This document shows positions 1,123-56,241 of a stretch of DNA of 64,000 nt, in pieces. The notes under the pieces were generated by a model. That model did no database searches. It saw nothing but the letters and a program-made list of their open reading frames with translations, and was not told where the DNA came from. Source of the DNA: Elainellaceae cyanobacterium (lineage in GTDB: Bacteria > Cyanobacteriota > Cyanobacteriia > CAZCXK01); contig JBNPEG010000084.1 in NCBI GenBank assembly GCA_051117555.1, positions 26,933 through 90,932 of the forward strand, given 5' to 3'. The translations under genes and the position numbers were made by a program. Positions within the stretch are counted from its first letter, which is position 1. Each line of letters begins with the position of its first letter.

Positions 1123-3297
1123 CTAATGTTGAGTCATTCGAACCGCGGCGGCGGCATTGACAAGACCATTGCCAAAGAAATACTGCTGAGCCGAAACAGG
1201 TTCAGGCAGTGGAAAGATACCTGATACTCGATCATCCCTTAAAGTCAGTCCAACATCTTGCTGTAATCGATAATGATTTAGGTCGGCTTGGGATAGGGTG
1301 AGGCCATCATAGTTAGCTGTTTCTTTGAGAATCGAGATAAGGCGATCGCGTCCTAAACCTGAGTTCTCGCCCTTCATTAACGCGATCACTCCTGAAACTG
1401 TCGGGGCTGAGAAGGAGGTGCCTTGAACTTGCACATACTCGCCTCTTGGATCAAGGCTGTATCCCCAGCCAAAATCAGGAACCTCCATCCCTTGCCAGAA
1501 GCTATCAACCCAGGTACCTCCTGTGGTCAAGATGCCACCGCTCAGCGCCGTTGCCGTTTCTCCACCCGGCGCTACTACGTCTAATCGCCCTCCGTAGCTA
1601 CTGTAATATGTGCGTCTACCATCCAGATTGGTTGCACCTACTGATACCACTCCTGGAGTAGCAGCAGGGAATGACACTCCATCAAAGCTTTCGTTACCGG
1701 CAGAAGCCACTATCACTAAATTGGTATGGTTATCTAACAGTTGAAAAATCTGATCGACTACCCCTTGATCGGGCATTACTCCACCTAGGCTCATATTGAT
1801 CACGTCAGCTCCTCGGTCTGCCGCATATCCTAAAGCTTCAATGAGACGAGCAGAGGTAATTTCACCTCCCAAACCAAACACCCGCACTGGCAAAATTTGC
1901 GATCGCGGCGCAACACCAATGGCTCCCGTACCTTCTTCAGGATGGGCAGCAATCACACCTGCTGACCACGTGCCGTGGAATTCAGCCGAAATCTCGCTGC
2001 GAATGATATTGCGAATTATACCTGCAACTTGCGTGCTGGAAATATTGGGATGCGAAGAACGAATTCGATTAGCAAGGCCATCATACTGCTCTAGCAAATC
2101 CGCATCGGAAAGGCGGAAGGCATTCTGAAAATGGGGGCGCAAGATAGCAACTTCATCATCACTGATACGGGTATCTGCATCTCCGGTCAGGCAACGATTC
2201 GCATCAGTCTTACTACAGACTAGAGTGTTACTGGTAAAATCCCAACCTTGTGATTCATAGGGAAATTCAGCCCTTTCTTCATCTAAGGTATAGACAGTAT
2301 TGATCAAGTTGGCATGATCCCACTGGATTAAACTATCAAGAACAGCTACTACCACCCCTTCACCACTATTACTCTGCTGCCATGCTTGAGTTGCACGGAC
2401 GTCCGTACGAGGAAGTAAGCGGCCTCGTTTAGGGGTACTGTTCAAATGCCACGCGAGGGGGAGTAAATTGCTAGAAAATAGTGTTTCAATTTGCGGCAAA
2501 TGAGCAAGCTGTTGCTGAATCACGTCCAGTGCATTGGGAGTAATGGCGAGGCTTGCATCCTGAATATCTTGTTCTTGCACACGATAGACTAATGATTGAA
2601 CAAAGTTAGGCGTTGCCGATTGAATGCCAACTACCCCGTTTAGCCGATTAGCGACATTGAGAACACCCATTCCCGTCTCTGTGCGCGATCGCACCAGATA
2701 GCGATTCTCGGTGAACTGGAGTGGGCGAATGACCTCTAGCCCATAGCGGTTGAAAAGCACCTGAATTTGGCTGTTTGATAAACCAGGTTCTAAACTGATG
2801 AGAATTTCATTGGGCAGCACAACATCTAACTCAGGACTATTCTCATCCCCTGTGTTCAGGGATAGAACGGGTAATGTGCCTTCAACGTAAGGCTGTTCTC
2901 GAATTTGCTGATCGACAGATGCTAGTCCTCGTGTTCCTGAAAGTTCGGTTACCAGAGCATAACGGGTTCCTAACGGTTCAATGTCTACGGATAGTGCCGA
3001 GCGGTAGGGCGAAGTGCGAATGGCTCGCGTCGTGCTGCTCGTGCCCTCTAAATCTTGCTGGAGCTGGAGATAAAGAGGTTGGCTCGATCCACCACGGGTG
3101 CTGCCTGCTTCGCGGAACGATACGGCGACGACATCAGTCCGCAAGGTGAGGGGGATTTGCTGCCCAAAGAAGGTATAGTACAAACCATCAGGTGTTTGGG
3201 CTTGGGCAATGGCAGTTGATTGCTGAATGGGTTGAAATGGCTGGGCGATCGCCAAAATACAGGCGGTTGCAACTAGGGTAGAATACAATCGTTTCAT
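1123..3297 (-). CDS. secreted S8 (subtilisin-like) serine peptidase
   Basis: Signal peptide; triad motifs VAVLDS, HGTWSAG and GTSFSAP; oxyanion motif ASAGN. Confidence 0.93.
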   Translation of the reverse strand: MKRLYSTLVATACILAIAQPFQPIQQSTAIAQAQTPDGLYYTFFGQQIPLTLRTDVVAVSFREAGSTRGGSSQPLYLQLQQDLEGTSSTTRAIRTSPYRSALSVDIEPLGTRYALVTELSGTRGLASVDQQIREQPYVEGTLPVLSLNTGDENSPELDVVLPNEILISLEPGLSNSQIQVLFNRYGLEVIRPLQFTENRYLVRSRTETGMGVLNVANRLNGVVGIQSATPNFVQSLVYRVQEQDIQDASLAITPNALDVIQQQLAHLPQIETLFSSNLLPLAWHLNSTPKRGRLLPRTDVRATQAWQQSNSGEGVVVAVLDSLIQWDHANLINTVYTLDEERAEFPYESQGWDFTSNTLVCSKTDANRCLTGDADTRISDDEVAILRPHFQNAFRLSDADLLEQYDGLANRIRSSHPNISSTQVAGIIRNIIRSEISAEFHGTWSAGVIAAHPEEGTGAIGVAPRSQILPVRVFGLGGEITSARLIEALGYAADRGADVINMSLGGVMPDQGVVDQIFQLLDNHTNLVIVASAGNESFDGVSFPAATPGVVSVGATNLDGRRTYYSSYGGRLDVVAPGGETATALSGGILTTGGTWVDSFWQGMEVPDFGWGYSLDPRGEYVQVQGTSFSAPTVSGVIALMKGENSGLGRDRLISILKETANYDGLTLSQADLNHYRLQQDVGLTLRDDRVSGIFPLPEPVSAQQYFFGNGLVNAAAAVRMTQH

Positions 3298-3332
3298 GGT
3301 TGTTACTCCTCAAGGGGTGAGCTATTTACACT

Positions 3333-3360
3333 TATCTCTGAGGTAAAGAGCGATATGGAA
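3333..3360 (-). promoter_or_regulatory. TTCCATA-N14-AGAGATA motif upstream of the S8 peptidase
   Basis: Reverse complement reads TTCCATA tcgctctttacctc AGAGATA, 36 nt before the ATG. Confidence 0.75.
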
Positions 3361-3399: not shown

Positions 3400-6300
3400 T
3401 TACAGGCCGTTGCCGATGAGGATGAAGGGTGCCCAGTAGTAAGGGTGGCTGAAACGAGTCTGAGATGATTGAGCTGTCGATTGCCCTTCATCAGTATCGA
3501 GTTCTTCTGGATTGGGTTCTATTGCAATGCCTCGATCATCGGAGCGATCGCCTGTTTCTTCCCCTCTGAGCAGACTCAGTTGAGCATCGCGCAAGGCTTG
3601 AGCAATGGTGCCTGGATTATCAGCGGTATTTTCAGCCAAGTTATGGTAAAAGCTCTGCATCAACTGACTGGTGCTGGCATCGTTCACCTGCCAAAGCGAC
3701 GCAACGACCGTATCCACGCCTGCATCAATAAAAGTCTGGGCAATACCTGAAATTTCTCTGCCGTCTAGTTCGGAAACTGCTGCTTGATTAGATGAGCGAC
3801 CGCCTAGAGCCGTTTCGCATGCTGAGAGCACCACCATGCTCAGAGACCGAAATTCGGCTCCAATATCTTGAATTTGGGAGATGCGCCAGTCTTCTTTGGT
3901 GCCCAGCATCAAGTAGGAGGAGTACAGGTTGGTGGGCATGTAGACGCCGTGGGTGGCGATGTGGAGAATGTTGTGCCCGGCCAAGCTGTAAAACACATTT
4001 TTATCAAACTGACTATTTAGTAACTCTTGACCCGAATAAATCCCGACTTCATCAGTGCGATCGCCACGCTGAACAATCACATCCAGTTCGTCGGGCACAT
4101 AACGCAGCCCCCTAAAACCGAACACATCGTCTGCCGGATCAACATCGGGTACTGCTTCTGACAGCCCCAAGGCCATTACGGAAATCGCGTTGGGGTCTTG
4201 GGGAAGAGGGGTATCTGCATGGCTCAACCAGGCGGCGGTGACGGTAGAAACAGTGTAGTTTTCAATCAGGTATTGGCTGCCGTCAAACAGCGCCGCCATC
4301 GGGATGTAGCGAACGGACCGATCCAGGGCAAAGACCAGGTTTTGAATATCATTTTGCTCTAGCTGCTCGCGCAACTGGGCAGGCATCAGCCAGTCATAAA
4401 GCTGCTGAGAAACCGCTTGAATCTCAGAGACAGGACTACACCGTCCCAATTCACATTGCGCCATCAGTTCATGGAAGCGAAACACCGCCTGGTTGATTTG
4501 CTCTTCACTGACGCCCTCCACATAAATGGGTTCTGCCAACCCTCCCTGAGTTGCCCACATGATTAAAAGCCGATCGTCTAGCACAATGGGATAAATCAAC
4601 ACCGTGCCTGGTTGAGCCTCAACGATTTTCTGCACATCCTCATAAATCAAGTCTTGTGGATCAGGGGCTTGATCATCAGCGGCGCGTCGCTGGCTCATAG
4701 CAGTTTCAAGCGTGCGAACGGCGTCGTTATAAGCAGTATTGCGTTCAGTGCGCTGTTGTTTGAGGCGGGTTAGCTCTTGTTGACCGCACTCTGGATCAGA
4801 TTCACAGGTGAGAATTGCCGAGCCCAACTGAATCAGGTCATAGTAGGCAGCCGCCGTGGTTTCTTCTTCAGGGAACTGATCGACCTCACGGGAGGCAACC
4901 CCACTGCGGGTATAGTCTCGAATTTCTTGAAGCTTTAGCAGCTCAATAACTTGCAGGGCTTCGAGGAGACGCCCTTGGGAAACGAGCAAGTCAGCGAGGC
5001 GGCGATAGGTATGGGAAACTGTATCAGTGTATGACTGCTGAAGTGCTTGGTCGAGCTGTTGAATGCCTCCCCGAATTTGTTCACGCGTATTGACGGACTG
5101 CTTTAAGAACACGATGGCAAGTTCGGGTTGGTCTTGAGTATCAAACAGGTGACCGATATTGTTAAGCGTAATGCCTTTTCCTGATTGATCCCCCACTTCA
5201 GTTCTGATGGCTAAGGCTTGCTGAAGGTACTCCAGCGCTTGCTGATACTGACCCAGATTGCGATACACCAAGCCAGTGTTGTTGAGGGTGGTGCCTTCAC
5301 CCGCGCGATCGCCTATTTCAATTGTGATAGCTAAGGCTTGCTGGTAATAGTCCAGTGCTTGAGAGTACTGACCTAGACTGTCATACACCCCGCCAATGTT
5401 GTTGAGGGTGGCTCCTTCTCCAGCGCGATCGCCAATGTCAGTTTTGATGGCTAAGGCTTGCTGATAGTGGTCCAGTGCTTGAGAGTACTGACCCAGAATG
5501 TCATACACCGAGCCAATATTGTTGAGGGTGACTCCTTCGCCAAATCGATCGCCCACTTCAGTTCTAATGGCTAAGGCTTGCTGGTAATAGTCCAGTGCTT
5601 GAGAGTATCGACCCAGATTGTCGTACACCAAGCCAATATTGTTGAGGGTGACTCCTTCGCCAAATCGATCGCCAATATCAGTTTTGATGGCTAAGGCTTG
5701 CTGATAATAGTCCAGTGCTTGAAAGTACTGACCCAGATTGACGTACACCCCGCCAATGTTGTTGAGGGTGGTTCCTTCTCCACGGCGATCGCCAATGTCA
5801 GTTTTGATGGCTAAGGCTTGCTGGTAATAGTCCAGTGCTTGAGAGTACTGACCCAGATTGGCGTACACCCCGCCAATGTTGTTGAGGGTGGTTCCTTCTC
5901 CAGCGCGATCGCCCACTTCAGTTCTGATGATTAAGGCTTGCTGATAATAGTCCAGTGCTTGAGAGTACTGACCCAGATGGATGTACACCAAGCCAATGTT
6001 GTTAAGGGTAGTTCCTTCGCCACGGCGTTGGCGGAACCTCTCTCCTGGAGAATTACCCCCTTCAGCGTGGATGGCTAAGGCTTGCTGGAAATAGTCAAAG
6101 GCTTGCTCATATTGGCCTAGTTTGAAGTACATTTCACCGATATTGTTGAGGGTGGCTCCTTCTCCAGCGCGATCGCCCACTTCGGTTCTGATGGCTAAGG
6201 CTTGCTGGTAGTAGTCGAGGGCTTGCTGATAGTCGCCCAGATTGCTATACACCAAACCAATGCCAGTGAGAATAGTTACTTCTCTAGATCGATCACCAGT

Positions 6301-6657
6301 TTCAACATTGATTTCTAATGCCTGCTGATAATAGTCCAGTGCTTGAGAGTACTGACCAACACTGTAAGCAATTGCCCCTAGCCCTGTTACGCTTCGTCCT
6401 TCTCCACGGCGATCGCCAATTTCTCGATAAATCTCGAACGCCCTTTGAAGCATCGATAGCGCTTGCTGATAGTCGCCTCGCTGCCAAAACTGAACTGACC
6501 TATCAAACAGTGCATCGGCTTCTGCTTGGCGATCGCCCTCTCCCACATCTTGAGCTAACGCCGTTGATTCCTTAAATGACAGAGAGAAGGGCGATGGAAC
6601 AATGAGCGATAGCAGAACCGTAGACGTCAACAAACCAAGCAAGCGGTGAGAGCGCAT
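3400..6657 (-). CDS. signal peptide + 40-aa TPR array + CHAT protease
   Basis: MRSHRLLG signal; TLNNIG/YQQALAI repeats; HIATHG and LSACET dyad; HPYYWAPFILIGNGL end. Confidence 0.93.
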   Translation of the reverse strand: MRSHRLLGLLTSTVLLSLIVPSPFSLSFKESTALAQDVGEGDRQAEADALFDRSVQFWQRGDYQQALSMLQRAFEIYREIGDRRGEGRSVTGLGAIAYSVGQYSQALDYYQQALEINVETGDRSREVTILTGIGLVYSNLGDYQQALDYYQQALAIRTEVGDRAGEGATLNNIGEMYFKLGQYEQAFDYFQQALAIHAEGGNSPGERFRQRRGEGTTLNNIGLVYIHLGQYSQALDYYQQALIIRTEVGDRAGEGTTLNNIGGVYANLGQYSQALDYYQQALAIKTDIGDRRGEGTTLNNIGGVYVNLGQYFQALDYYQQALAIKTDIGDRFGEGVTLNNIGLVYDNLGRYSQALDYYQQALAIRTEVGDRFGEGVTLNNIGSVYDILGQYSQALDHYQQALAIKTDIGDRAGEGATLNNIGGVYDSLGQYSQALDYYQQALAITIEIGDRAGEGTTLNNTGLVYRNLGQYQQALEYLQQALAIRTEVGDQSGKGITLNNIGHLFDTQDQPELAIVFLKQSVNTREQIRGGIQQLDQALQQSYTDTVSHTYRRLADLLVSQGRLLEALQVIELLKLQEIRDYTRSGVASREVDQFPEEETTAAAYYDLIQLGSAILTCESDPECGQQELTRLKQQRTERNTAYNDAVRTLETAMSQRRAADDQAPDPQDLIYEDVQKIVEAQPGTVLIYPIVLDDRLLIMWATQGGLAEPIYVEGVSEEQINQAVFRFHELMAQCELGRCSPVSEIQAVSQQLYDWLMPAQLREQLEQNDIQNLVFALDRSVRYIPMAALFDGSQYLIENYTVSTVTAAWLSHADTPLPQDPNAISVMALGLSEAVPDVDPADDVFGFRGLRYVPDELDVIVQRGDRTDEVGIYSGQELLNSQFDKNVFYSLAGHNILHIATHGVYMPTNLYSSYLMLGTKEDWRISQIQDIGAEFRSLSMVVLSACETALGGRSSNQAAVSELDGREISGIAQTFIDAGVDTVVASLWQVNDASTSQLMQSFYHNLAENTADNPGTIAQALRDAQLSLLRGEETGDRSDDRGIAIEPNPEELDTDEGQSTAQSSQTRFSHPYYWAPFILIGNGL
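6028..6051 (-). mobile_element. 24-nt in-frame insertion at a degenerate HIP1 position (SDR5-like)
   Basis: SPGERFRQ interrupts the TPR GDR motif; nearly the same insert is at 29050-29073. Confidence 0.65.
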
Positions 6658-6693: not shown

Positions 6694-6721
6694 TAGCTCT
6701 GAGGCTGGAGAGGGTATGGAA
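6694..6721 (-). promoter_or_regulatory. TTCCATA-N14-AGAGCTA motif upstream of TPR-CHAT 6657
   Basis: Reverse complement reads TTCCATA ccctctccagcctc AGAGCTA, 37 nt before the ATG. Confidence 0.75.
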
Positions 6722-7891: not shown

Positions 7892-7919
7892 TTCCATACC
7901 ATCTCCTGTGCCAGAGATA
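7892..7919 (+). promoter_or_regulatory. TTCCATA-N14-AGAGATA motif
   Basis: Exact match, 37 nt before ATG 7956. Confidence 0.75.
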
Positions 7920-7955
7920 TACACTAATGTCGGTCATTATCCTGCTGGAGAATTT

Positions 7956-8485: not shown

Positions 8486-8552
8486 AGCGATTGTAGTGGA
8501 GGATGCCCCTTCCACGCCTATTCGTACCGTTACTAATCCAGAGACTTCCATC

Positions 8553-18034: not shown

Positions 18035-18062
18035 TTCCATACCCGCCGTTGTCCCAGATATA
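18035..18062 (+). promoter_or_regulatory. TTCCATA-N14-AGATATA motif variant
   Basis: One mismatch; about 145 nt before ATG 18207. Confidence 0.55.
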
Positions 18063-26509: not shown

Positions 26510-26537
26510 TTCCATATCTGCTTCATGCCTAGAGATA
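26510..26537 (+). promoter_or_regulatory. TTCCATA-N14-AGAGATA motif
   Basis: Exact match, 43 nt before ATG 26580. Confidence 0.75.
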
Positions 26538-27199: not shown

Positions 27200-27227
27200 T
27201 TCCATATCTGTGTATCTACCAGAGATA
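27200..27227 (+). promoter_or_regulatory. TTCCATA-N14-AGAGATA motif
   Basis: Exact match, 41 nt before ATG 27268. Confidence 0.75.
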
Positions 27228-28440: not shown

Positions 28441-28468
28441 TTCCATACCTCTCTTTGGCTCAGAGATA
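28441..28468 (+). promoter_or_regulatory. TTCCATA-N14-AGAGATA motif
   Basis: Exact match, 42 nt before ATG 28510. Confidence 0.75.
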
Positions 28469-35548: not shown

Positions 35549-35597
35549 TGTCTATGCTTTGACTACACTTCAACCGACCACTTTACAAGGAAAAACC

Positions 35598-37177: not shown

Positions 37178-37205
37178 TTCCATATCTGATTTGTGGTCAG
37201 AGCTA
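37178..37205 (+). promoter_or_regulatory. TTCCATA-N14-AGAGCTA motif
   Basis: TTCCATA tctgatttgtggtc AGAGCTA upstream of the CAP/RTX gene. Confidence 0.7.
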
Positions 37206-39845: not shown

Positions 39846-39873
39846 TTCCATACCCTCTCCTGCACCAGAGATA
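39846..39873 (+). promoter_or_regulatory. TTCCATA-N14-AGAGATA motif
   Basis: Exact match, 37 nt before ATG 39910. Confidence 0.75.
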
Positions 39874-43848: not shown

Positions 43849-44041
43849 GCGATCGCCCATTCACCCATTGCGTGAAGATTTAATGCATTGCACTGGGCGT
43901 ACGGCGTCATTGGTGTCAACTTAAGCTGAAAGCTCCTATCATGAAAGGCTTTGCTGCGATCGCCCTCACCCCCAACCGCTCTCCCAATTTTGGGAGAGGA
44001 GAGAAAAATGTACGCCGTACGCCCCTGCATACGTTTCATTG
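43849..44041. repeat. REP-like unit interrupted by a nested repeat insertion
   Basis: Aligns with 14689-14770 but carries about 100 extra bp (43908-44009) flanked by GTACGGCGT and GTACGCCGT. Confidence 0.6.
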
Positions 44042-44059
44042 ATTACTGCTGGAGAAATT

Positions 44060-46831
44060 ATGCGTTCTCACCACTTGCTTGGCCTAGTGACTTCTACCAT
44101 TCTGCTGTCACTCATTGTCCCAGTTCCTGTTTTGCTATCGCTTGGAGAATCAACAGTTCTGGCTCAAGATGTGGGAGAAAGCGATCGCCAAGCTGACGCT
44201 GACGCTTTGTTCCAGCAATCAATTCGGGCCGGGCAGCAAGGTGACTATCAACAAGCGCTAGGAATGCTTCAGCAAGCCTTGGTAATTTACAGAGAGACTG
44301 GTAATCATCGTGGAGAAGGACTGACGTTAAGAGCCTTAGGAGCTATTTCAAACCGAATTCATCAGTATTCTCAGGCACTCGAATACTATCAACAAGCGTT
44401 AGATGTATTTTCTGAACTTGGCGATCGCTTGAGTGAAAGTACTGTTCTTAACAGAATGGGTTTAATTTACGACAATCTAAACCAATATCAGCAGGCTCTA
44501 GCTTCTTATCAGCAGGCGTTAGACATCAGTTCTGAGATTAGTATCCGTGAAGCATTTCCACAGGAAAGTCGTTCCGAACAAAGTAATGCTTTCAATAACA
44601 TTGCTGCCGTCTACTTCGACTTAGGTCAATATCAAGAGGCACTCAACTATTTTCAGCAAGCATTAGTTGTTGATATTGAACTAGGTGATCGACGCGGGGA
44701 AAGCACTATCCTCAACAATATTGGTGCCGTCTATGATAACCTCGGTCAATATCAGCAAGCTCTAGCCTCTTATCAACAGGCTCTGGCAATCGCGTCTGAA
44801 ATTGAATATCCTTCAGGAGAAGGTACTGCCTTAACCAATATTGGATTGGTCTACGCCAACTTGGGCCAATATCAACAGGCCCTCAACTCTCACCAACAGG
44901 CTTTGACTATCTTTACTGAGATTGGCAATCTTCAAGGGGAAGGATCTGCACTGACCAACATAGGTGCAGCATACCGCCACTTAGACCAATATCAGCAAGC
45001 TCTAGATGCCCATCGCTGTGCTTTAACTATTTTCACTGAAATCAACGATCGTCAAGGGCAAGGTTTCGCTTTCAATAATATTGGCTCGCTCTACGATAAC
45101 CTCGGCCAGTATGAGCAAGCTCTAGATTCTTATCATCAGGCGTTGCTCATTCTAGCTGAGCTTGGCAATCGCCGAGGTGAAGGTGTTACGCTTCATGGCA
45201 TTGGATTGGCGCATCAAAACTTAGGTCAGTATGAACAAGCACTGGAGTATTATCAACAATCCATCACGATCAGTATTGAGATTGGCGATCGCCGGGGTGA
45301 AGGCAGTACGCTCCATAATATTGGTGCTGTGTATTTAGAAACAGGACGCTATGCTGATGCAGAACAAACACTGTTTGAAGCATTGGCAGTACTGGAATCT
45401 TTGAGAGATGAGGATTTGGACGATGTCGATAAAGTCGCTTTATTTGAGACCCAACTCAATATCTACGAACTCCTCCAGCAAACCCTAACAACTCAAGGAA
45501 ACAATGAAATTGCTCTAGAGATTGCGGAACGCGGACGGGCACGCATCATGGTCGAGCTTCTGACCGAACAAGCTTCAGATCGCTTGTCACAAGAGATTTT
45601 CAGTGATGTACCTACTGTAGAAGAAATTCAGCACATTGCTCAGCAGCAGAACGCTACCCTCGTCAACTACTCCTTAATCAACTCAGGCGTGGGTGATCCA
45701 GCACTCTACATCTGGGTCGTACAACCAGATGGAACTATTGACTTTGTTGAAGTTCCCCTCAGCGACACTGAAACCCATACTCCATTCCGTAATCCGATCG
45801 CTCAGCTTGATGGTGCCTTCTATCGCGGGATATCTCGACCTGACGTGAGTTCTCCACTCGTCGCCGATCTCCGTTCTGCCCTTGGCACCGATCGCGGCAT
45901 TGAATTGGTTAGAACCGATGATGCCGAAACCACCAACCGCCTCCAAGAATTTCACCATCTTCTTATTGATCCGATCGCCCACCTCCTGCCTACTGACCCT
46001 AACGAGAAAGTCGTTTTTATTCCTCAAGGTAGCTTGTTTCTCATCCCCTTCGCCGCCCTCCAAGACGACAACGGGACCTATTTGATCGAACGTCATACGA
46101 TATTGACTGCACCCTCTATTCAAGTCTTAGGGCTCACTCAAGACATCCAAGCTAGTCTGAGCCGCGATCGTGTTCAATTCAGCGATTTAACAACCGAGGA
46201 AATGTTGATTGTTGGCAACCCCACCATGCCAGAAGCTTGGAACCCCGACAACTCTGAAATGGAGCAGTTGAGTCCTCTTCCGGGTGCCGAACGGGAGGCC
46301 AACGCGATCGCCCGCTTCCTCAACACCCATTCTCTTACTGGAGATGCGGCCACCGAGACCCAAATCCGGCAGCAGATACAAACTGCCCGGTTAATTCATT
46401 TAGCAACCCACGGGTTACTACAATACGGCATTCCTCAGGAGTCAGGAGTGAGAGACATACCCGGCGCAATCGCGTTAGCTCCCGGTAGCAGAGACGATGG
46501 ATTGCTCACGTCTGCCGAAATTCTAACTCTTGATCTTAATGCCGAATTAGTTGTATTAAGTGCCTGTGATACCGGACGAGGGGATATTCGAGGAGATGGA
46601 GTGATCGGTCTGTCGCGATCGCTCATCACAGCGGGAGTACCCAGCATTGTGGTCTCTCTGTGGCAGGTGCCCGATACTCCGACTGCTAATCTAATGACGG
46701 AATTTTATCGTCAGCTTCAGCAATCACCCGATAGAGCCGAAGCGTTACGACAAGCGATGCTGATTACAATGCAGGATCATCCCCATCCGATTAACTGGGC
46801 TGGATTCACGCTAATCGGGCAAGCAAATTAA
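44060..46831 (+). CDS. signal peptide + TPR array + CHAT protease (ERGRAR subtype)
   Basis: MRSHH signal after a GGAGA RBS; HLATHG and LSACDTG. Confidence 0.93.
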   Translation: MRSHHLLGLVTSTILLSLIVPVPVLLSLGESTVLAQDVGESDRQADADALFQQSIRAGQQGDYQQALGMLQQALVIYRETGNHRGEGLTLRALGAISNRIHQYSQALEYYQQALDVFSELGDRLSESTVLNRMGLIYDNLNQYQQALASYQQALDISSEISIREAFPQESRSEQSNAFNNIAAVYFDLGQYQEALNYFQQALVVDIELGDRRGESTILNNIGAVYDNLGQYQQALASYQQALAIASEIEYPSGEGTALTNIGLVYANLGQYQQALNSHQQALTIFTEIGNLQGEGSALTNIGAAYRHLDQYQQALDAHRCALTIFTEINDRQGQGFAFNNIGSLYDNLGQYEQALDSYHQALLILAELGNRRGEGVTLHGIGLAHQNLGQYEQALEYYQQSITISIEIGDRRGEGSTLHNIGAVYLETGRYADAEQTLFEALAVLESLRDEDLDDVDKVALFETQLNIYELLQQTLTTQGNNEIALEIAERGRARIMVELLTEQASDRLSQEIFSDVPTVEEIQHIAQQQNATLVNYSLINSGVGDPALYIWVVQPDGTIDFVEVPLSDTETHTPFRNPIAQLDGAFYRGISRPDVSSPLVADLRSALGTDRGIELVRTDDAETTNRLQEFHHLLIDPIAHLLPTDPNEKVVFIPQGSLFLIPFAALQDDNGTYLIERHTILTAPSIQVLGLTQDIQASLSRDRVQFSDLTTEEMLIVGNPTMPEAWNPDNSEMEQLSPLPGAEREANAIARFLNTHSLTGDAATETQIRQQIQTARLIHLATHGLLQYGIPQESGVRDIPGAIALAPGSRDDGLLTSAEILTLDLNAELVVLSACDTGRGDIRGDGVIGLSRSLITAGVPSIVVSLWQVPDTPTANLMTEFYRQLQQSPDRAEALRQAMLITMQDHPHPINWAGFTLIGQAN

Positions 46832-48691: not shown

Positions 48692-48719
48692 TTCCATACC
48701 CTCTCCTGCGTCAGAGATA
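48692..48719 (+). promoter_or_regulatory. TTCCATA-N14-AGAGATA motif
   Basis: Exact match, 37 nt before ATG 48756. Confidence 0.75.
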
Positions 48720-48755: not shown

Positions 48756-51700
48756 ATGCGCTCTCACCGCTTGCTTGGTTTAGTGACGTCCACAGTTCTG
48801 CTGTCGTTTGTTGTTCCGGTATCCTTGTCGCCGTCGTTTAGAGAATCAGCGGCATTAGCTCAAGAGGCGGGAGAGGGCGATCGCAAAGCCGAAGCTGATG
48901 CACTCTTTAATGGCTCAATTCAGTTTTGGCAGCGAGGCGACTATCAACAAGCGCTATCGATGCTTCAACAAGCGTTAGAGATTTATCGAGAGATTGGCGA
49001 TCGCCGTGGGGAAGGAGCCACCCTCACTGGCATTGGCGCGGTGTATCGCAATCTGGGTCAGTACTCTCAAGCCCTTGACTATTATCAGCAAGCATTAGAA
49101 ATCAATATTGAAACTGGCGATCGCCAGGGAGAAGGCACCACCCTCAACAACATTGGCGTGGTGTACGACAGTCTGGGTCAATATCAACAAGCGCTGGACT
49201 ATTACCAGCAAGCCTTAGCCATCCGAACTGACATTGGCGATCGCCGTGGAGAAGGAGTCACCCTCAACAACATTGGCGCGGTGTACGACAATCTGGGTCA
49301 GTATCAGCAAGCGCTGGACTACTATCAGCAAGCCTTAGCCATCACAACTGTCATTGGCGATCGATCCGATGAAGGGAATATCCTCGACAACATTGGCCAG
49401 GTGTATCACAATCTGGGTCAGTATCAGCAAGCGCTGGACTACTATCAGCAAGCCTTAGCTATCCGAACTGACATTGGCGATCGCCGTGGAGAAGGCACCA
49501 CCCTCAACAACATTGGCGGGGTGTACGACAGTCTGGGTCAGTATCAGCAAGCGCTGGACTACCTTCAGCGAGCCTTAGCCATCAGCATTGACATTGGCGA
49601 TCGATCTGGAGAAGGCACCACCCTCAACAACATTGGCGGGGTGTACGACAGTCTGGGTCAGTATCAGCAAGCGCTGGACTACTATCAGCAAGCCTTAGCC
49701 ATCCGAACTGACATTGGCGATCGCCGTGGAGAAAGAGTCACCCTCAGCAACATTGGTGAGGTGTATCGCAATCTCGGTCAGTATCAGCAAGCACTGGGCT
49801 ACTTTCAGCGAGCCTTAGCCATCAGCATTGACATTGGCGATCGCGCTGGAAAAGGAATAGCCCTTAATAGTATTGGCGCGGTGAGTGGCAATCTCGGTCA
49901 GTATCAGCAAGCACTGGACTACTTTCAGCGAGCCTTAGCCATCAGCATTGACATTGGCGATCGATCTGGAGAAGGCACCACCCTCAACAACATTGGCGGG
50001 GTGTACGACAGTCTGGGTCAGTATCAGCAAGCGCTGGACTACTATCAGCAAGCCTTAGCCATCCGAACCGAAGTGGGCGATCGCCGTGGAGAAGGACGGA
50101 CCCTCAACAACATTGGCTTGGTGTATCGCAAGCTGGGTGAGTATCAGCAAGCGCTGAACCACTATCAGCAAGCCTTAGCCATCCGAACTGAAGTGGGCGA
50201 TCGTTCTGGTGAAGGAGTCACCCTCAACAACATTGGCGTGGTGTACGACAGTCTGGGTCAATATCAACAAGCGCTGGACTATTACCAGCAAGCCTTAGCC
50301 ATCCGAACTGACATTGGCGATCGCGCGGGTGAAGGAACCACCTTCAACAACATCGGTGCGGTGTATCGCGATCTGGGTCAGTATCAGCAAGCGCTGGACT
50401 ATTATCAGCAAGCCTTAGCCATCACAACTGTCATTGGCGATCGCCGTGGAGAAGGACGGACCCTCAACAACATTGGCTTGGTGTACGACAGTCTGGGTGA
50501 GTATCAGCAAGCGCTGGACTATTACCAGCAAGCCTTAGTCATCATCACTGACATTGGCGATCGCGCGGGTGAAGGAGCCACCCTCAACAACATTGGTTAT
50601 ACGCTAGAGTCGCTTGGTCAGTCTGAATTAGCAATTGTTTTTCTCAAAGAATCCGTCAACCAGTGGGAAGAAATTCGCGGTGACATTCGCGGACTTTCCA
50701 TTGAACAGCAGCAGTCTTTTGCAGACAGCATTTCATCCAGCTATCGTCGTCTCGCCGACCTCCTCCTGCAAGCCGATCGCGTCCTCGAAGCCCAACGAGT
50801 CCTTGACCTGCTCAAAGTCCAAGAGCTTGACGAATACTTGCAAGATGTCCAGCGCAGTGCCCAAACCGAAGACGGAGTTCCACTATCTAATCCTGAAGTA
50901 CAAATTCAAGAGCGTCAGCAAGCTATTACCAATCGAGCCGTTGCCATTGGTGAAGAACTGGCTCAACTCCGTCAAATCGAGCCTGAAAATCGCACGCCAG
51001 AGCAGATGGCTCGCATCACCGAACTAGAAGCAATGCAGGCTGAAGTCATTGCCGAGTTTGAAGACTTTATCTACAGTGATGAAATCCAGGCACTGGTGGC
51101 TCAGCTTACCCGCGAGACTCGTCCCCAAGATTTGGTCAATGAACTCGATGAACTGATCACTATTCAAGACAACCTCCGCGCCCTCGAACAAAACGCAGTG
51201 TTGCTCTATCCGTTGATTCTCGACGATCGCATTGAACTTGTGCTCGTAACGCCTAACAGTCCACCAGCCCGCTATCCCATCAACGTCAGCCGCAGCGAAC
51301 TCAATGCCGCCATCGTCGAGTTTCGACAGGCATTAGAAACACCCACTAGCAATCCAGAAGCGATCGCCCAACAGCTCTACAACTGGCTGATTCAACCCCT
51401 CGCATCAGACCTCGAAGCCATCAACGCCGAAACCATCATCTACGCTCCTGATGGCGTACTGCGCTACGTGCCCCTAGCCGCTCTGCATGATGGCGATCGC
51501 TGGTTAGCCGAACGCTTTCGCGTCAACCACATCACCGCCGCCAGCCTCACCAATCTCAACCTACAGCCAGCCGCTCAGCCTGACATTTTAGCGGCTGCCT
51601 TTAGCGAAGGCTCCGTTGAATTTCAAGTGGGCGATCGCAACTTTGCCTTTGATGGGTTGCCCTATGCAGGTCAAGAAGTCGAAAACTTGGTCGCGGCGTT

Positions 51701-52295
51701 TCCTGGAACCACCAAGCTAATGGACGAAGACTTTAGCCCCACCGCAACCGTGGGCATCATGGATGACCACACCATCGTCCACCTGGCAACCCACGCCGAA
51801 TTTGTGCAAGGCACTCCTGCCGAGTCATTCATCGTGTTTGGCAATGGCGATCGCGTCACCCTCGAAGAAATTAAGCAGTGGCGAGGTCGCTTTCGGCAGA
51901 TTGATTTGATTGTGCTAAGTGCCTGTGAGACAGGTCTAGGAGAAAGCTTGGGTAACGGGGAGGAAATTCTCGGCTTTGGCTACCTAATGCAGCGGGCAGG
52001 CGCACGAGCGGCGATCGCGTCTCTCTGGGCTGTGAGCGACGGAGGCACTCAAAACCTAATGGATGCCTTCTACACTGCTATTCTCAATGGCTACAGCAAA
52101 ACCGAAGCCTTGCAACGAGCGCAAGTGGCTCTAATCCGCAATGACGCATCGGTGTTAGAACCATCCCAGCGAGGCATTCAGCTCGAATCCACCGAAACAG
52201 GTGAACCCTTGGAAATTCAGAGCAGATCCCTGCAAGGACGCCTCGGTCATCCCTACTATTGGGCTCCCTTCATCCTCATCGGTAACGGACTATGA
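48756..52295 (+). CDS. signal peptide + long TPR array + CHAT protease
   Basis: About 14 near-identical 120-bp TPR units; HLATHA and LSACETG. Confidence 0.93.
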   Translation: MRSHRLLGLVTSTVLLSFVVPVSLSPSFRESAALAQEAGEGDRKAEADALFNGSIQFWQRGDYQQALSMLQQALEIYREIGDRRGEGATLTGIGAVYRNLGQYSQALDYYQQALEINIETGDRQGEGTTLNNIGVVYDSLGQYQQALDYYQQALAIRTDIGDRRGEGVTLNNIGAVYDNLGQYQQALDYYQQALAITTVIGDRSDEGNILDNIGQVYHNLGQYQQALDYYQQALAIRTDIGDRRGEGTTLNNIGGVYDSLGQYQQALDYLQRALAISIDIGDRSGEGTTLNNIGGVYDSLGQYQQALDYYQQALAIRTDIGDRRGERVTLSNIGEVYRNLGQYQQALGYFQRALAISIDIGDRAGKGIALNSIGAVSGNLGQYQQALDYFQRALAISIDIGDRSGEGTTLNNIGGVYDSLGQYQQALDYYQQALAIRTEVGDRRGEGRTLNNIGLVYRKLGEYQQALNHYQQALAIRTEVGDRSGEGVTLNNIGVVYDSLGQYQQALDYYQQALAIRTDIGDRAGEGTTFNNIGAVYRDLGQYQQALDYYQQALAITTVIGDRRGEGRTLNNIGLVYDSLGEYQQALDYYQQALVIITDIGDRAGEGATLNNIGYTLESLGQSELAIVFLKESVNQWEEIRGDIRGLSIEQQQSFADSISSSYRRLADLLLQADRVLEAQRVLDLLKVQELDEYLQDVQRSAQTEDGVPLSNPEVQIQERQQAITNRAVAIGEELAQLRQIEPENRTPEQMARITELEAMQAEVIAEFEDFIYSDEIQALVAQLTRETRPQDLVNELDELITIQDNLRALEQNAVLLYPLILDDRIELVLVTPNSPPARYPINVSRSELNAAIVEFRQALETPTSNPEAIAQQLYNWLIQPLASDLEAINAETIIYAPDGVLRYVPLAALHDGDRWLAERFRVNHITAASLTNLNLQPAAQPDILAAAFSEGSVEFQVGDRNFAFDGLPYAGQEVENLVAAFPGTTKLMDEDFSPTATVGIMDDHTIVHLATHAEFVQGTPAESFIVFGNGDRVTLEEIKQWRGRFRQIDLIVLSACETGLGESLGNGEEILGFGYLMQRAGARAAIASLWAVSDGGTQNLMDAFYTAILNGYSKTEALQRAQVALIRNDASVLEPSQRGIQLESTETGEPLEIQSRSLQGRLGHPYYWAPFILIGNGL

Positions 52296-52306: not shown

Positions 52307-52334
52307 TTCCATACCTGGAATTTCTTTAGAGATA
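52307..52334 (+). promoter_or_regulatory. TTCCATA-N14-AGAGATA motif upstream of the caspase
   Basis: TTCCATA cctggaatttcttt AGAGATA. Confidence 0.7.
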
Positions 52335-52354: not shown

Positions 52355-52830
52355 GTAGAGGAGTGGAGGGGTAGATGGGTGGAGGGGTAGATGGGTGGAG
52401 GGGTAAAGATGAGAGCATTTAGGTCTCGTGTGAGTGCGACCGTCCTTGGTCGCGTGTGCCCTAACCGTGTGGGGATGTGAGCGAGACGCTATGCTCCGCA
52501 TTGCCAGGGCAAACGCACTTAACTACACAAAATTCGGAACACTCTCTAAAAATATCTGACGTTGCGAAATTGATGAATGATAGAGAAACCATTAGCTCAC
52601 CAACCACCCGTTGTACGGGCATGACAATGTCATGCCCCTCCGAAAATCATTCGCCGATGAGCAATGCCAAATATCTTTACCCATCCACTCTCCCACTCAT
52701 CTACTCATCCACTCTCCCATTCATCTACTCATCCGCCCATCCATTCTCCCACTCATCCATTCTCCCACCCATCCATTCTCCCACCCATCCATTCTCCCAC
52801 CCATCCATTCTCCCACTCATCCACTCTCTC
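52355..52830. repeat. inverted short-tandem-repeat tracts flanking hairpins
   Basis: G-rich tract (GGGTAGAT/GGGTGGAG) at 52355-52405 and complementary C-rich tract (CCCATCCA) at 52678-52830. Confidence 0.75.
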
Positions 52831-52865
52831 GCTCACAGCTAACAAACCTAAACGAACCTCTAACT

Positions 52866-55160
52866 ATGTCTAAAATCAATCGTCGTCAATTTTTACAATT
52901 TACTGGGTCTGCCCTCACCGCCGTTGGTCTGAGTCAATTTGATCTGATTCGGCAGAGCGATCGCTATGCCCGTGTGCTAGCTCAAGATACGCCTCGAAAG
53001 CTGGCTCTCCTAGTTGGGATTAATGACTATTCCAGAGAACGAGCGGGCTGGAACCCTCTCAGGGGATGCGTCAACGACGTGCTCATGCAGGAAGAACTGC
53101 TGGTACATCGCTTTGGCTTTAATCGCAGTGATATTGTCAAATTGACCAATAGCGAAGCAACCCGCGGCAATATCATCACTGCGTTTGAAGAACATTTGAT
53201 TGATCAAGCAAAGCCTGGAGATGTTGTCGTCTTTCACTATTCGGGGCATGGCTCTCGCGTGGTCGATCCAAACCCTTTAAGCACTGACCCACTCAATAGC
53301 ACCTTTGTCCCCATCGATAGTCCTTTACCGGACGGGTACGACAGTAGACGCGTCGAAGTTAACGACATCATGGGCCAGACCTTGTTTTTGCTGATGCTGT
53401 CGCTGCAAACAGAGATGGTGACTGCCGTATTAGATAGCTGCCACTCTGGAGGCGGCAAGCGGGGCGTGCTGACCATGCGAGCACGGGATGGAGCTAATGT
53501 ATTTGCTAATATCCATCCCAGTCAAGCAGAACTCGACACTCAAGAACGGCTGCGATCGCGCTTAGGCTTGTCAGACACAGAGGTGGCAGCGCTTCGAGAA
53601 CAAAATATTGCTAAAGGCGTCGTAATTGCTTCGGCTACAAAAAACCAACTGGCAGCAGATGCATCATTCAGCGGCTTCTATGCAGGTGCCTTTTCCTACT
53701 TGATGACACAATATCTGTGGCAGCAAACTATTAATGAGCCTATAGAAAGTACTGTCGCTAACATCAGCCGGATTACTCGTAATGTTTCCAATGACATTTC
53801 GCGGTTGGTGCAAGAGCCGGAGTTTGAGCAAAATCTTCCGACCGAATTGACCAACTCACCGATCTATTTCATTTCTCGCCAAACGCCAGCAGCTGAGGCT
53901 GTAATTACCAGCGTTGGAGAGGGCGATCGCCTCGGTGTTTGGCTAGGGGGAATCAGTCCCAGTGGTCTTGTGGCTATTGATGATGCCATATTCCTGGCAC
54001 TGGATGAAGCGGGACAAGAACTGGGGCAAGTACAAATCGTATCCAGAGATGGGCTAAGTGCAGAAGCCCAGTTAATTGAGGGGTCACGTTCTATCCCTCG
54101 ATCAGGAGTGTTTTTGCAGGAAGAAATTACTGGTGTTCCTGAAGATCTCAGGCTAAAGGTCGGGCTTGATCCGGCTTTAGGAGATGAGATGGCGATCGCA
54201 GACCAGGCACTATCTGCTATTTCTCGCTTAGACGTGAAGCCTCCCGATGTCGGTGATGTAGACTATCTGTTTGGCCGCATGACATCGGCTTATCAGTCAC
54301 AGCAAAGCCAACTAGTGAATGAAATTCCGCCAGAAGGCAGTCTGGGGCTATTTCTTCCAGGACAAGACGTGCTGAAAGGTTCATTTGGAGAGCCTGGAGA
54401 ATCGGTGAGTGATGCAGTAAATCGACTCCGCTCCAAATTCAGCGTACTGCTGGCTTCTCGGCTGTTAAAAGTGCTAGTCAATCCAGGGTCATCGCGGCTT
54501 AATGTGGTCGCTTCAATGCGCCCCGTAGGAACCGATGGAATTATGGCAACGGCTGAGACGTTGACGGTAAGGGGGCAACGGAGTATCCAAGAAGATGACA
54601 GCGCTACTCCAGTAGTACCACCGACTGATCTTCCTATCGATGCTAGCCGCTTGCCATTGGGAACTGTCGTCGAACTTGAAGTAAAAAACAATGAGGATGA
54701 AGAACTATACGTCAGCATTATCGTGATTGATGCAGAAGGAAACTTGGTTTTGCTGTTTCCCACCAACTGGGATGCACCGATCGCGGCATCTCTCGTTGAT
54801 GCTGGGGAAACGCTTCGGGTCCCTGATCCCAGTCGAGATAATTTTAGATTGCGATTGGTCGAACCTACTGGCATTGTGGAGGTTTTGGTGATTGCCAGCA
54901 AGTTTGAACTCCGGGATACGCTACGTGCCCTAGGAGATATTGCACTGACTAGAGGAGTGTCGCGGGGTAGCGCATTGGCAGGAGGGGAAGAATTTTTGGA
55001 TGTGGCTGATTCACTACTGCGTGATCTCGATAGTGGCACTCGCGGTACCCGTAGCGTCGCTCAAGAATATATTGGGCCAAATACGCGAGGGATCAGCAGC
55101 AACAGTCTAGCCGCATTCTCGATCGCATTTGAGCTGTATGATCCAGCGCAAGAAGCATAA
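52866..55160 (+). CDS. Tat-exported caspase-family (C14, meta/orthocaspase-like) protease with a DUF4384-like C-terminal domain
   Basis: MSKINRRQFLQ twin-Arg signal; KLALLVGINDY, HYSGHG, LDSCHSG; LYVSIIVIDAEG..LLFP. Confidence 0.9.
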   Translation: MSKINRRQFLQFTGSALTAVGLSQFDLIRQSDRYARVLAQDTPRKLALLVGINDYSRERAGWNPLRGCVNDVLMQEELLVHRFGFNRSDIVKLTNSEATRGNIITAFEEHLIDQAKPGDVVVFHYSGHGSRVVDPNPLSTDPLNSTFVPIDSPLPDGYDSRRVEVNDIMGQTLFLLMLSLQTEMVTAVLDSCHSGGGKRGVLTMRARDGANVFANIHPSQAELDTQERLRSRLGLSDTEVAALREQNIAKGVVIASATKNQLAADASFSGFYAGAFSYLMTQYLWQQTINEPIESTVANISRITRNVSNDISRLVQEPEFEQNLPTELTNSPIYFISRQTPAAEAVITSVGEGDRLGVWLGGISPSGLVAIDDAIFLALDEAGQELGQVQIVSRDGLSAEAQLIEGSRSIPRSGVFLQEEITGVPEDLRLKVGLDPALGDEMAIADQALSAISRLDVKPPDVGDVDYLFGRMTSAYQSQQSQLVNEIPPEGSLGLFLPGQDVLKGSFGEPGESVSDAVNRLRSKFSVLLASRLLKVLVNPGSSRLNVVASMRPVGTDGIMATAETLTVRGQRSIQEDDSATPVVPPTDLPIDASRLPLGTVVELEVKNNEDEELYVSIIVIDAEGNLVLLFPTNWDAPIAASLVDAGETLRVPDPSRDNFRLRLVEPTGIVEVLVIASKFELRDTLRALGDIALTRGVSRGSALAGGEEFLDVADSLLRDLDSGTRGTRSVAQEYIGPNTRGISSNSLAAFSIAFELYDPAQEA

Positions 55161-55230
55161 AACATGATAACGGCGATCGCCCTTTTCTGACGGATGTCTT
55201 GATTTTTCACGATTTAGCCCAAATCTCTAT

Positions 55231-56241
55231 GTGTTTGCTATGAACTGGACTTCTAAGCTCTCAAAATTTACCTTATCCCTGATACTAGGAGCGGCAATTT
55301 CCCTCCTCTTAAGCATCAGTGCAAACCTGCTACCCACCCCCGCTTCAGCACAGTTCCAACCCACATCTGTCCCTGACCTGCCTGCTGCCTCAACTGCTCC
55401 CAGCAGTTTGGCAGACTTGAATTTTGCTGTGGAGATTGACGCTTTCGTCCCTCCTGAATTGCCCCAGTCTGACAGTCCGGTGGAAGGAGGGCGGGGTATC
55501 ATTGGCCCAGACAATCGCCTGCCGATGACTAGCAGTGCTTATCCCTGGTCGGCTATTGGTCGCATCTTGAGCCTTACTCCTCTGGGAGATGAGCAGTTTG
55601 CGGTTTCTGCCTGCACTGGAACCCTGATTCAGATTGATATGGTGCTCACTAATGCCCATTGCGTGGTCGATCCGGCAACCCATGAATTTAAGCAGAGCGT
55701 CTACTTCCAGCCCAATCTGGTAAATGGTCAGCTTCAGAACGAGGAGGATTTGGCGATCGCCACCACCGTCTGGGCAGCCACCGATTTTCGAGAGGATAAC
55801 ATACCACCCAATGCTGATGATTGGGCGTTGCTCAAACTCGATAAACCCCTCGGTGATACCTATGGCACGATCGAGTGGAGGCCATTACCTCTGGAAACGC
55901 TGGTCGAAGAATACCAGGAAAAACTTATCTTAGCCGGGTATTCTGGCGATTTCCCTGCTGACAATCCTGGCGAAACAGCGGGTGTCCATGAAGGGTGCAG
56001 TATTTTTGGAGACTATGAAGACAGCGTAATTCACGACTATGACACTACAAGCGGCGCGTCAGGTGGGCCAATTTTGGCAGAGGTAGATAGCAAGATGCGC
56101 ATTTTGGCTGTCAATTCAGCCGAACAAACTGAACTACTCACTCAAGAAGGACATTCTGAACCTCGTCGGGTTGGTGTGGTGAATTATGCTGTTCAAATTT
56201 CTCGTATCGTAGAGACTCTCGTGGCTCAACAAGGACGTTAG
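55231..56241 (+). CDS. secreted trypsin-like serine protease
   Basis: TNAHC, DWAL and GASGGP; Tyr replaces the Cys of HDCD/HECD seen in the paralogs. Confidence 0.9.
   Translation: MFAMNWTSKLSKFTLSLILGAAISLLLSISANLLPTPASAQFQPTSVPDLPAASTAPSSLADLNFAVEIDAFVPPELPQSDSPVEGGRGIIGPDNRLPMTSSAYPWSAIGRILSLTPLGDEQFAVSACTGTLIQIDMVLTNAHCVVDPATHEFKQSVYFQPNLVNGQLQNEEDLAIATTVWAATDFREDNIPPNADDWALLKLDKPLGDTYGTIEWRPLPLETLVEEYQEKLILAGYSGDFPADNPGETAGVHEGCSIFGDYEDSVIHDYDTTSGASGGPILAEVDSKMRILAVNSAEQTELLTQEGHSEPRRVGVVNYAVQISRIVETLVAQQGR

Follow-up and report, generated by a model that had tools for sequence, protein, structure and literature searches.

A conserved arginine as candidate processing site in exported-type TPR-CHAT proteins, V8-like serine proteases, an orthocaspase and a subtilase of a cyanobacterial protease island

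The 64-kb window analysed here, the whole of a stretch of contig C13 from the HIP1-rich, 6.06 Mb genome of an Elainellaceae cyanobacterium, is dominated by protease genes, with about 15 of these encoding exported-type proteins from four protease classes that appear to share a site consisting of an arginine followed by a small residue. Pfam searches identified nine TPR-CHAT genes, named here by the lower of their two coordinates (3400 on the minus strand; 14870, 18207, 23060, 28510, 32870, 39910, 44039 and 48756 on the plus strand), next to a CHAT gene without TPR (35532), an orthocaspase gene, an S8 subtilase gene, three closely related genes for trypsin-fold proteases (31865, 42872 and 55231) and a fourth of another kind (59988), and a CHAT-CHASE2 fusion with DUF1822 ahead of it (10020-13822). 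The scores with the CHAT model PF12770 were 176-295 bits for the nine TPR-CHATs, 212 for 35532 and 30.6 for the CHASE2 fusion, with a cut-off of 24, and the open reading frames (ORFs) at 8496, 13832, 46834 and 61873 had no match in Pfam or NCBIfam.

All nine TPR-CHATs carry the motif Arg-Gly-(Ile/Val)-x-(Ile/Val/Leu)-(Glu/Asp/Val), at three places which are not homologous to each other. In seven of them (3400, 14870, 23060, 28510, 32870, 39910 and 48756) the motif lies in an insert that separates the final helix of the CHAT domain from its final strand, a place which we take to correspond to the L4 loop of caspases; the remaining two have it in the loop after the catalytic His (18207) and in the linker before the CHAT core (44039), and the His-less 35532 has Lys-Gly at the place homologous to that of the seven. 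An earlier note on this DNA, made from the letters alone, had listed the nine motifs and the Lys-Gly, and every listed instance was confirmed and its coordinates checked (Table 1). A pattern derived from the nine instances matched 57 of the 6559 genome ORFs of at least 100 aa (1.88 million aa), these nine proteins included, a count that is circular because the pattern was built from the same instances; conservation is the independent test. Among the 120 closest CHAT homologues the insert Arg is kept in 113 (with Lys in another three), the next residue is Gly (94), Ala (12) or Ser (8) in 114/120, and the preceding residue varies (Gln 34, Glu 21, Asp 18). With 150 representatives of 50%-identity clusters, 106 have the Arg, three have Lys and 29 lack the insert, i.e. 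Arg is present in 106 of the 121 insert-bearing sequences, where it is followed by Gly (66), Ala (23) or Ser (14) in 103/121, and none of the other insert positions is conserved in more than 85/150. In these relatives the small residue is followed by 0-2 variable residues and then by an alternating hydrophobic pair; the family motif is thus looser and of variable spacing, and the strict Arg-Gly-hydrophobic version is therefore a local form.

In four of the nine CHAT motifs the Asp-Arg codons are part of a HIP1 octamer (GCGATCGC), as the earlier note had rightly cautioned. HIP1 as the sole source of the motif can be ruled out, as Asp precedes the Arg in only 18/120 homologues and HIP1 can therefore not explain why the Arg is kept. 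The octamer is present in 149 copies in the 64 kb, and is also in frame as Gly-Asp-Arg in many TPR repeats.

The other two places were compared with relatives of the same type. For the linker motif of the 44039 type, the same spot has Arg-(Gly/Ala/Ser) plus a hydrophobic pair in 13 of 28 relatives, or in nine of 28 when the strict rule is applied, and a second Arg-Gly often precedes it. For the post-His loop of the 18207 type, the full motif is present in six of 30 relatives, and inspection by eye found that all twelve loops of at least 33 residues hold an Arg with Gly or Ser behind it and a small or hydroxyl residue ahead of it. What appears to be the same element thus turns up in flexible segments of three CHAT subfamilies, at a different place in each, as would be expected of a functional linear motif.

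The junction of the three V8/YdgD-like serine proteases is the firmest case for processing at such a site. These proteins score above the cut-off with both PF00089 and PF13365, and the catalytic residues His134, Asp187 and Ser266 are invariant in 51 sequences of the family; homologues in JGI are labelled either 'V8-like Glu-specific endopeptidase' or 'protease YdgD', which are source labels only. The Arg at the predicted junction is invariant in 120/120 homologues, and likewise in 78/78 loci recovered independently from species-representative genomes. The sequence ahead of the Arg is variable in the 120 homologues, and behind the Arg come Gly (70), Ala (31) or Val (16), Ile or Val as second residue, and a run of invariant residues. 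When the family profile was compared with solved structures, the best solved relatives were 7uxg and 1p3c, with the glutamyl endopeptidase of Bacillus intermedius (1p3c) as best full-length match (E = 1.3e-17, profile positions 83-294 to chain residues 2-197). As residue 2 of 1p3c aligns one past the post-Arg residue, chain residue 1 corresponds to the residue right after the Arg. The chain presumably begins at the mature N-terminus, and enzymes of the glutamyl endopeptidase/V8 family need an exact new N-terminus for activity. The earlier placing of an R-G-type motif at the propeptide ends of the three trypsins agrees with this alignment. An AlphaFold model of the 31865 pro-enzyme has a mean predicted local distance difference test (pLDDT) score of 87.9, with block averages of 81-96 for residues 41-80, and scores under 50 are confined to residues 34-38 at the end of the signal peptide and residues 81-85 at the junction; with the signal region ending near residue 36 and the Arg at 82, the model suggests a folded propeptide of roughly 45 residues.

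We also compared the gene neighbourhood of the 78 serine protease loci, for 71 of which at least 1500 nt of upstream DNA was available. A CHAT gene is located directly upstream on the same strand in 45 loci, directly downstream in ten, and within 6 kb in 60. Out of the 33 loci without an upstream CHAT gene 28 were scanned, giving seven divergent orthocaspases (C14 plus DUF4384), three trypsins, four TPR proteins and otherwise unrelated genes. In the window, a serine protease gene adjoins only three of the nine TPR-CHATs, with none beside the other six. Orthologues of the S8 subtilase, the orthocaspase and the CHATs are found within a few kb of each other in many genomes, judged by their coordinates.

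The orthocaspase and the S8 subtilase contain sites of the same kind. In the orthocaspase the active-site stretches with His and Cys could be read in the sequence, and 29 of 30 orthologues retain Arg811, which is located in a variable tail with a conserved block on either side; the residue ahead of it is Thr in 17 and Ser in 8, and the one behind it is Gly in 18, Ser in 6 and Asn in 4. The literature is cited here and below from excerpts of the papers named; in orthocaspases, a positively charged residue precedes the cut site (PMC6426788). The conservation of Arg811 appears compatible with such cleavage after basic residues and with the self-processing known for orthocaspases. The two further caspase motifs proposed earlier are present as well, but are less well kept, with Arg826 in 18/30 and Arg781 in 14/30 orthologues. 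For the S8 subtilase, Arg68 is kept in 15 of 18 orthologues (with Thr before it in 14) and the Arg94 column in 18/18, these two flanking a conserved helix in the N-terminal pro-region, but the third proposed site, Arg123, is found in only 6/18. The conserved column is Arg94 by alignment, and the Arg91 of the earlier note lies three residues before it. The segment that follows these Arg sites looks, by its sequence, like the inhibitor-type propeptide of subtilases, and the sites are therefore not the end of the pro-region. The support for the S8 and orthocaspase sites is positional conservation only. The last case, a motif string in 'DUF928', is present in 13832-14665, but this ORF had no DUF928 match in Pfam at E-values up to 1 and none in NCBIfam, which leaves the case unsupported. 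Conservation above the loop background, which the earlier note had named as a check, was thus found for the CHATs, the serine proteases, Arg811 of the orthocaspase and two of the S8 sites.

The exported character previously proposed for these proteases agrees with their predicted N-termini. The N-termini of the S8 subtilase, the three related serine proteases and the nine TPR-CHATs read as basic residues, then a hydrophobic segment, then a small-x-small site. The orthocaspase probably starts at Met86 (nt 52866), which is followed by a twin-arginine signal. A crude hydropathy test detected an N-terminal hydrophobic 12-mer in 84/102 CHAT homologues and 96/116 serine protease homologues, versus 685/2272 genome ORFs of at least 300 aa. 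The start of the orthocaspase ORF (52611-52865) consists of about 85 codons of a His/Pro/Ser-rich repeat before the twin-arginine signal, and is probably an untranslated leader with a DNA tandem repeat and not protein.

Many of the genes are also linked by a promoter-like box. The 10-mer WTTCCATAYC is present in 11 copies in the window versus 0.47 expected, a number reached in 0/100 shuffles, and every copy has the same orientation as the gene behind it. Its bipartite version (TTCCATAYC, 9-13 nt, YAGAKMTA) has 12 copies in the complete 6.06 Mb genome, all on C13, with 11 in the window and the twelfth about 950 nt before it (G000:C13:25957-25984). The box is located 34-43 nt before eight start codons, those of the S8 subtilase, CHATs 3400, 28510, 39910 and 48756, the exported-type protein 26580, the TPR protein 27268 and the CAP-RTX protein 37239, and is farther ahead of CHAT 18207 (145 nt), the orthocaspase and a decayed CHAT copy. 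Given the short distances behind the boxed genes, 28510-31865-32870-35532 and 39910-42872-44039 are probable operons. The box suggests a dedicated regulator, perhaps an alternative sigma factor; candidates are the product of ORF 8496-10004 and sigma factors of the ECF type.

Table 1. Genes with Arg sites and promoter-like boxes, in nucleotide positions of the 64-kb window.
Feature	Coordinates	Strand	Details
S8 subtilase	1123..3297	-	PF00082 1.2e-44; signal-like N-terminus; Arg68 nt 3094-3096, Arg94 column nt 3016-3018
TPR-CHAT	3400..6657	-	CHAT 9.5e-55 (Pfam); Arg1042 motif nt 3517-3534, C-terminal insert
TPR-CHAT	14870..17725	+	Arg914 motif nt 17609-17626, C-terminal insert; Asp-Arg from HIP1
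TPR-CHAT, canonical short-tailed type	18207..22055	+	Arg1118 motif nt 21558-21575, loop after catalytic His
TPR-CHAT	23060..26143	+	Arg990 motif nt 26027-26044; CHAT domain modelled with AlphaFold
TPR-CHAT, directly upstream of serine protease 31865	28510..31800	+	Arg1054 motif nt 31669-31686
V8/YdgD-like S1 serine protease, putative zymogen	31865..32821	+	Pfam Trypsin, Trypsin_2; predicted junction Arg82-Gly83 nt 32108-32113
TPR-CHAT	32870..35548	+	Arg851 motif nt 35420-35437
CHAT without TPR and without catalytic His, Cys kept	35532..37139	+	Lys501-Gly at homologous place, nt 37032-37049
TPR-CHAT, directly upstream of serine protease 42872	39910..42705	+	Arg893 motif nt 42586-42603
V8/YdgD-like S1 serine protease, putative zymogen	42872..43834	+	predicted junction Arg80-Ala81 nt 43109-43114
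TPR-CHAT, third subtype	44039..46831	+	Arg619 motif nt 45893-45910, linker before CHAT core
TPR-CHAT	48756..52295	+	Arg1139 motif nt 52170-52187
Orthocaspase (Peptidase_C14 + DUF4384)	52611..55160	+	PF00656 2e-21; Arg811-Gly nt 55041-55046, C-terminal tail
V8/YdgD-like S1 serine protease, putative zymogen, directly downstream of orthocaspase	55231..56241	+	predicted junction Arg88-Gly89 nt 55492-55497
Box	3333..3360	-	upstream of S8 subtilase
Box	6694..6721	-	upstream of TPR-CHAT 3400
Box	7892..7919	+	upstream of decayed CHAT gene
Box	18035..18062	+	upstream of TPR-CHAT 18207
Box	26510..26537	+	upstream of 178-aa protein 26580
Box	27200..27227	+	upstream of TPR-only protein 27268
Box	28441..28468	+	upstream of TPR-CHAT 28510
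Box	37178..37205	+	upstream of CAP + RTX-repeat protein 37239
Box	39846..39873	+	upstream of TPR-CHAT 39910
Box	48692..48719	+	upstream of TPR-CHAT 48756
Box	52307..52334	+	upstream of orthocaspase + serine protease pair

All nine TPR-CHATs retain the catalytic His and Cys, and 35532 has Asn for the His and keeps the Cys; in an alignment of the ten CHAT domains of the window, H165 and C211 are invariant columns and H169 is nearly invariant. The CHAT domain of 23060 was modelled with AlphaFold (mean pLDDT 83.5, predicted template modelling score 0.82), and the sole segment with a pLDDT below 50 comprises residues 389-396 of the model, containing Arg394 of the loop. A Foldseek search with this model gave Csx29 as best match (8eex_B, 3.2e-16), followed by DdvA (3.3e-10), separase (1.3e-08) and gingipain R (3.3e-05), and the fold also matched the SAVED-CHAT filament 8tl0. 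With regard to specificity, the earlier note had stated that clan CD enzymes related to the CHATs cut after Arg, and this holds for HetF, the founding CHAT protease of cyanobacteria, which cuts PatU3 between Arg117 and Ser118, with cleavage abolished by a change of Arg117 and lowered by Ser118Ala (PMC9457339), but not for the Craspases, which cut at other residues (PMC11106740). The authors of the HetF study also remarked that family C50 prefers Arg (PMC9457339). A candidate residue behind such a specificity for Arg is the Asp of a Trp-x-Val-x-Asp motif after the strand that follows the catalytic Cys, which is invariant in the ten window CHATs and in 82/82 aligned relatives, and which aligns to Ser in the Scalindua Craspase chain (cutting at Leu|Asp) and to Asp in DdvA. 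A CHAT-only profile searched against solved structures reached DdvA and Csx29 and not separase, and the Asp was not tied to the Arg pocket of separase in this way; with a profile of the whole TPR-CHAT alignment, the matches to solved structures were swamped by TPR proteins.

We propose that the products of the island are exported precursors, and that their sites of Arg plus a small residue are cut by clan-CD enzymes, a reading of the sequences to which we give about an even chance. The nine TPR-CHATs, the orthocaspase, the three serine proteases and the subtilase would then form a co-regulated exported set made as inactive or partly active precursors, in which Arg followed by Gly, Ala or Ser in a flexible segment would be the processing site, and the CHATs, the orthocaspase or both would be the cutters. 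A cut after the invariant Arg would free the serine protease from its folded propeptide and create the new N-terminus, and the activator of each V8-like zymogen would be the CHAT or orthocaspase encoded just upstream, which is the step we hold most likely; the sites in the CHAT loops and linkers, the orthocaspase tail and the S8 pro-region could serve in self- or cross-maturation. The data show the motifs and their conservation, the flexibility of the motif segments in the models, the neighbouring of the genes, the signal-like N-termini and the box confined to the island; that the sites are cut, by which protease and in what sequence, is our inference.

Several observations weigh against this proposal. 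The linker motif is present in only about half of the 44039-type relatives and the post-His loop motif in about a fifth of those of the 18207 type, and Arg-(Gly/Ala)-hydrophobic is a common sequence (2.4 per 1000 aa), which is also present within the TPR helices of the same CHATs. Simple counts of Arg-(Gly/Ala)-(Ile/Val/Leu/Pro) show no enrichment in the S8 subtilase (two seen versus 1.7 expected) or the orthocaspase (four versus 2.1). About 38 of the 45 CHATs encoded upstream of a serine protease in other genomes, mostly from Nostocales, are short-tailed and lack the C-terminal insert (counted by eye), and the pairing can therefore do without self-processing of the CHAT in this loop. There is no evident difference in the residues before the junction Arg between serine proteases with an upstream CHAT and those with neither a CHAT nor an orthocaspase as upstream neighbour, and nothing in these residues points to a single activator. 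The TPR-CHATs of the Craspase type cut at Ala|Ser, Leu|Asp and Met|Lys (PMC11106740), and the serine proteases could activate themselves. Finally, a low pLDDT means that the segment was not confidently modelled and nothing more.

The reverse direction, with Arg-specific serine proteases first activating themselves and then cutting the CHATs, the orthocaspase and the S8 subtilase, has a precedent in the staphylococcal V8-type serine protease, which activates the co-transcribed cysteine protease staphopain B (PMC3454333). In 116 of 120 members of the serine protease family the residue six before the catalytic Ser is Asp. In trypsin, the Arg-binding Asp is at this distance from the catalytic Ser. 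The same Asp-Thr is, however, found by alignment in the Glu-specific 1p3c, so the Asp does not indicate Arg specificity of the serine proteases, and the labels of the homologues are also those of Glu-specific or YdgD-like enzymes. Also in favour of this direction, outside the junction the three serine proteases contain only one, two and one Arg-(Gly/Ala) pairs versus about 2.6 expected in each; this scarcity is suggestive of avoided cut sites, but it is not significant. Six of the nine TPR-CHATs also lack an adjacent serine protease gene. We consider the reverse direction rather unlikely.

The CHAT element could alternatively be an uncut latch or docking element, i.e. a pseudosubstrate in the active site of the same or a partner protein, or a strand in a TPR groove, with only the serine protease junction being processed. 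From the fold, all three CHAT motif places could reach the active site, the alternating hydrophobic pattern after the Arg is typical of a strand, the inactive-type paralogue 35532 keeps the element (with Lys), and a strand-like insert is also found here in other CHAT subfamilies of the genome, in which the Arg is not fixed. Against a latch, the residue after the Arg is small in 103/121 representatives, which is the preference of the clan after the cut, as seen with the slowing of HetF by Ser118Ala (PMC9457339). The segment also has a pLDDT below 50 in the model and is not docked there, and the same class of motif marks the junction, which is a processing site in the solved relative; this makes a latch unlikely. 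The strand-like inserts of the other subfamilies also raise the option that the insert is just a conserved structural hairpin, which the low pLDDT of this segment in the CHAT model does not support, though it may still apply.

A bolder subset of the precursor proposal is a complement-like cascade with multiple tiers, as put forward in the earlier note, where ligand binding by the TPR arrays triggers the CHATs, which activate one another and then the serine proteases. All points in favour of clan-CD processing apply here too, and in addition the island combines nine paralogous TPR-CHATs of differing TPR array length with decayed copies alongside, and a cytoplasmic cascade from CHAT to caspase is known (bioRxiv 10.1101/2023.06.23.546230). 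As nothing in these data orders the steps or makes the TPRs sensors, and most partner CHATs in other genomes lack the self-motif, we consider this cascade doubtful. It is similarly improbable that the island encodes an extracytoplasmic network of multicellular cyanobacteria resembling innate immunity, in which diversifying TPR arrays would sense foreign or damage ligands, and the CHATs and orthocaspase would switch on serine- and subtilisin-type effectors via the common Arg site, under a private promoter and a dedicated regulator; if true, bacteria would have an equivalent of the complement, Toll or prophenoloxidase cascades. That the motif is without function and reflects paralogue ancestry, HIP1 and chance, for which one can cite the Asp-Arg supplied by HIP1 in four of nine CHATs, its abundance in the window, the homology of seven of the nine CHAT sites and the motif counts at expectation in the S8 subtilase and orthocaspase, is very improbable and largely refuted by the conservation in CHATs, serine proteases and orthocaspase, with the Arg being kept with a residue other than Asp before it in 102/120 homologues, across 50%-identity clusters and invariably in the serine proteases, and with the motif recurring at non-homologous places that are themselves conserved.

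One of the closest known systems is the staphylococcal cascade (aureolysin to SspA/V8 to SspB, with the sspABC operon), which consists of secreted zymogens activated in series, with a V8-type propeptide removed by a different protease and the V8-type enzyme co-transcribed with a cysteine protease (PMC3454333). In contrast, no metalloprotease that could act as starter was seen in the window, its cysteine proteases are of clan CD (CHAT and C14) and not papain-like, the cysteine protease gene comes first, the junction Arg is invariant, and about 15 protease genes are together in one cyanobacterial island. The SAVED-CHAT system of Haliangium ochraceum (type III-B CRISPR/CBASS) also has a CHAT protein that cleaves and activates an adjacently encoded protease, PCaspase, but is cytoplasmic, is triggered by cyclic oligoadenylate via SAVED and has a caspase as target (bioRxiv 10.1101/2023.06.23.546230), whereas the window proteins have predicted export signals, TPR arrays instead of SAVED, and an S1 serine protease as neighbour. 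HetF of Anabaena PCC 7120 is likewise a cyanobacterial CHAT cutting between Arg and a small residue; in the excerpt of its description, it is a regulator of cell division and heterocysts with a cytoplasmic substrate, without a TPR array or serine protease partner, and no export signal is reported (PMC9457339). The Craspase Csx29 (type III-E CRISPR) shares the order of TPR followed by CHAT and is the best fold match of the window CHAT, but is cytoplasmic, bound to Cas7-11, and cuts Csx30 at sites without Arg (PMC11106740). Compared with 1p3c and other V8-family zymogens, the window enzymes combine the modelled folded propeptide with an invariant junction Arg and a conserved CHAT or orthocaspase neighbour.

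The CHAT family is very large, with 105,078 representative proteins found by a CHAT domain search at E-values up to 0.001 and 5,506 at 1e-30, and it is almost unstudied, with substrates known for a few cytoplasmic members (separase, HetF, Craspase and SAVED-CHAT). The conserved pair of an exported-type TPR-CHAT and a V8-like zymogen therefore offers a concrete candidate substrate and cut site. The site shared by four protease classes and the box confined to the island together suggest one regulated extracellular proteolytic system of filamentous cyanobacteria, with possible roles in defence, cell death, matrix remodelling or feeding. The protein families and bacterial zymogen cascades as such are already known. 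A search of the Creative Commons papers in PubMed Central and of bioRxiv found no description of exported TPR-CHAT/V8-like zymogen pairs and no relevant match for exoproteome evidence; as far as these sources reach, the exported pair, the invariant junction Arg, and a class of site common to four families under a private promoter are new.

The window also contains a block (8496-14665) with an unknown 502-aa protein, DUF1822, a fusion of a CHAT/caspase-like domain with CHASE2, and an exported-type Pro-rich protein of 277 aa. This block resembles the gene set of EACC2-caspase-CHASE2 with an ECF sigma factor and DUF1822 described by Kaur, Iyer, Burroughs and Aravind in 2021 (PMC8195603), but lacks the Arg-Gly loop motif and has no promoter box directly before its genes, and is a neighbour of the motif-sharing set.

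Some further features touch the CHAT genes. The His-less 35532 overlaps the preceding gene for an active-type TPR-CHAT by 17 nt, and may be a pseudo-protease partner or decoy. There are two decayed CHAT copies: the first (7892-8434) has a promoter box and 5' end identical to those of CHATs 3400, 39910 and 48756, after which only a C-terminal CHAT fragment remains (8135-8434), and the second (56699-57037) is a C-terminal fragment of the 18207 type. Each of them adjoins a gene of the Uma2 family, at 6955-7530 and 57065-57646, respectively. The fourth trypsin-fold protease (59988-61064, minus strand) belongs to a different family, adjoins a gene for an ShlB/FhaC-type POTRA transporter (58206-59939, minus strand), and has a C-terminus which looks like a PEP-CTERM sorting signal. 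Finally, the boxed genes include one for a CAP (cysteine-rich secretory protein) domain fused to RTX calcium-binding repeats (37239-38279), with a box as for the proteases, and the 26580 gene, which encodes an exported-type protein of 178 aa that is weakly YbjN-like.

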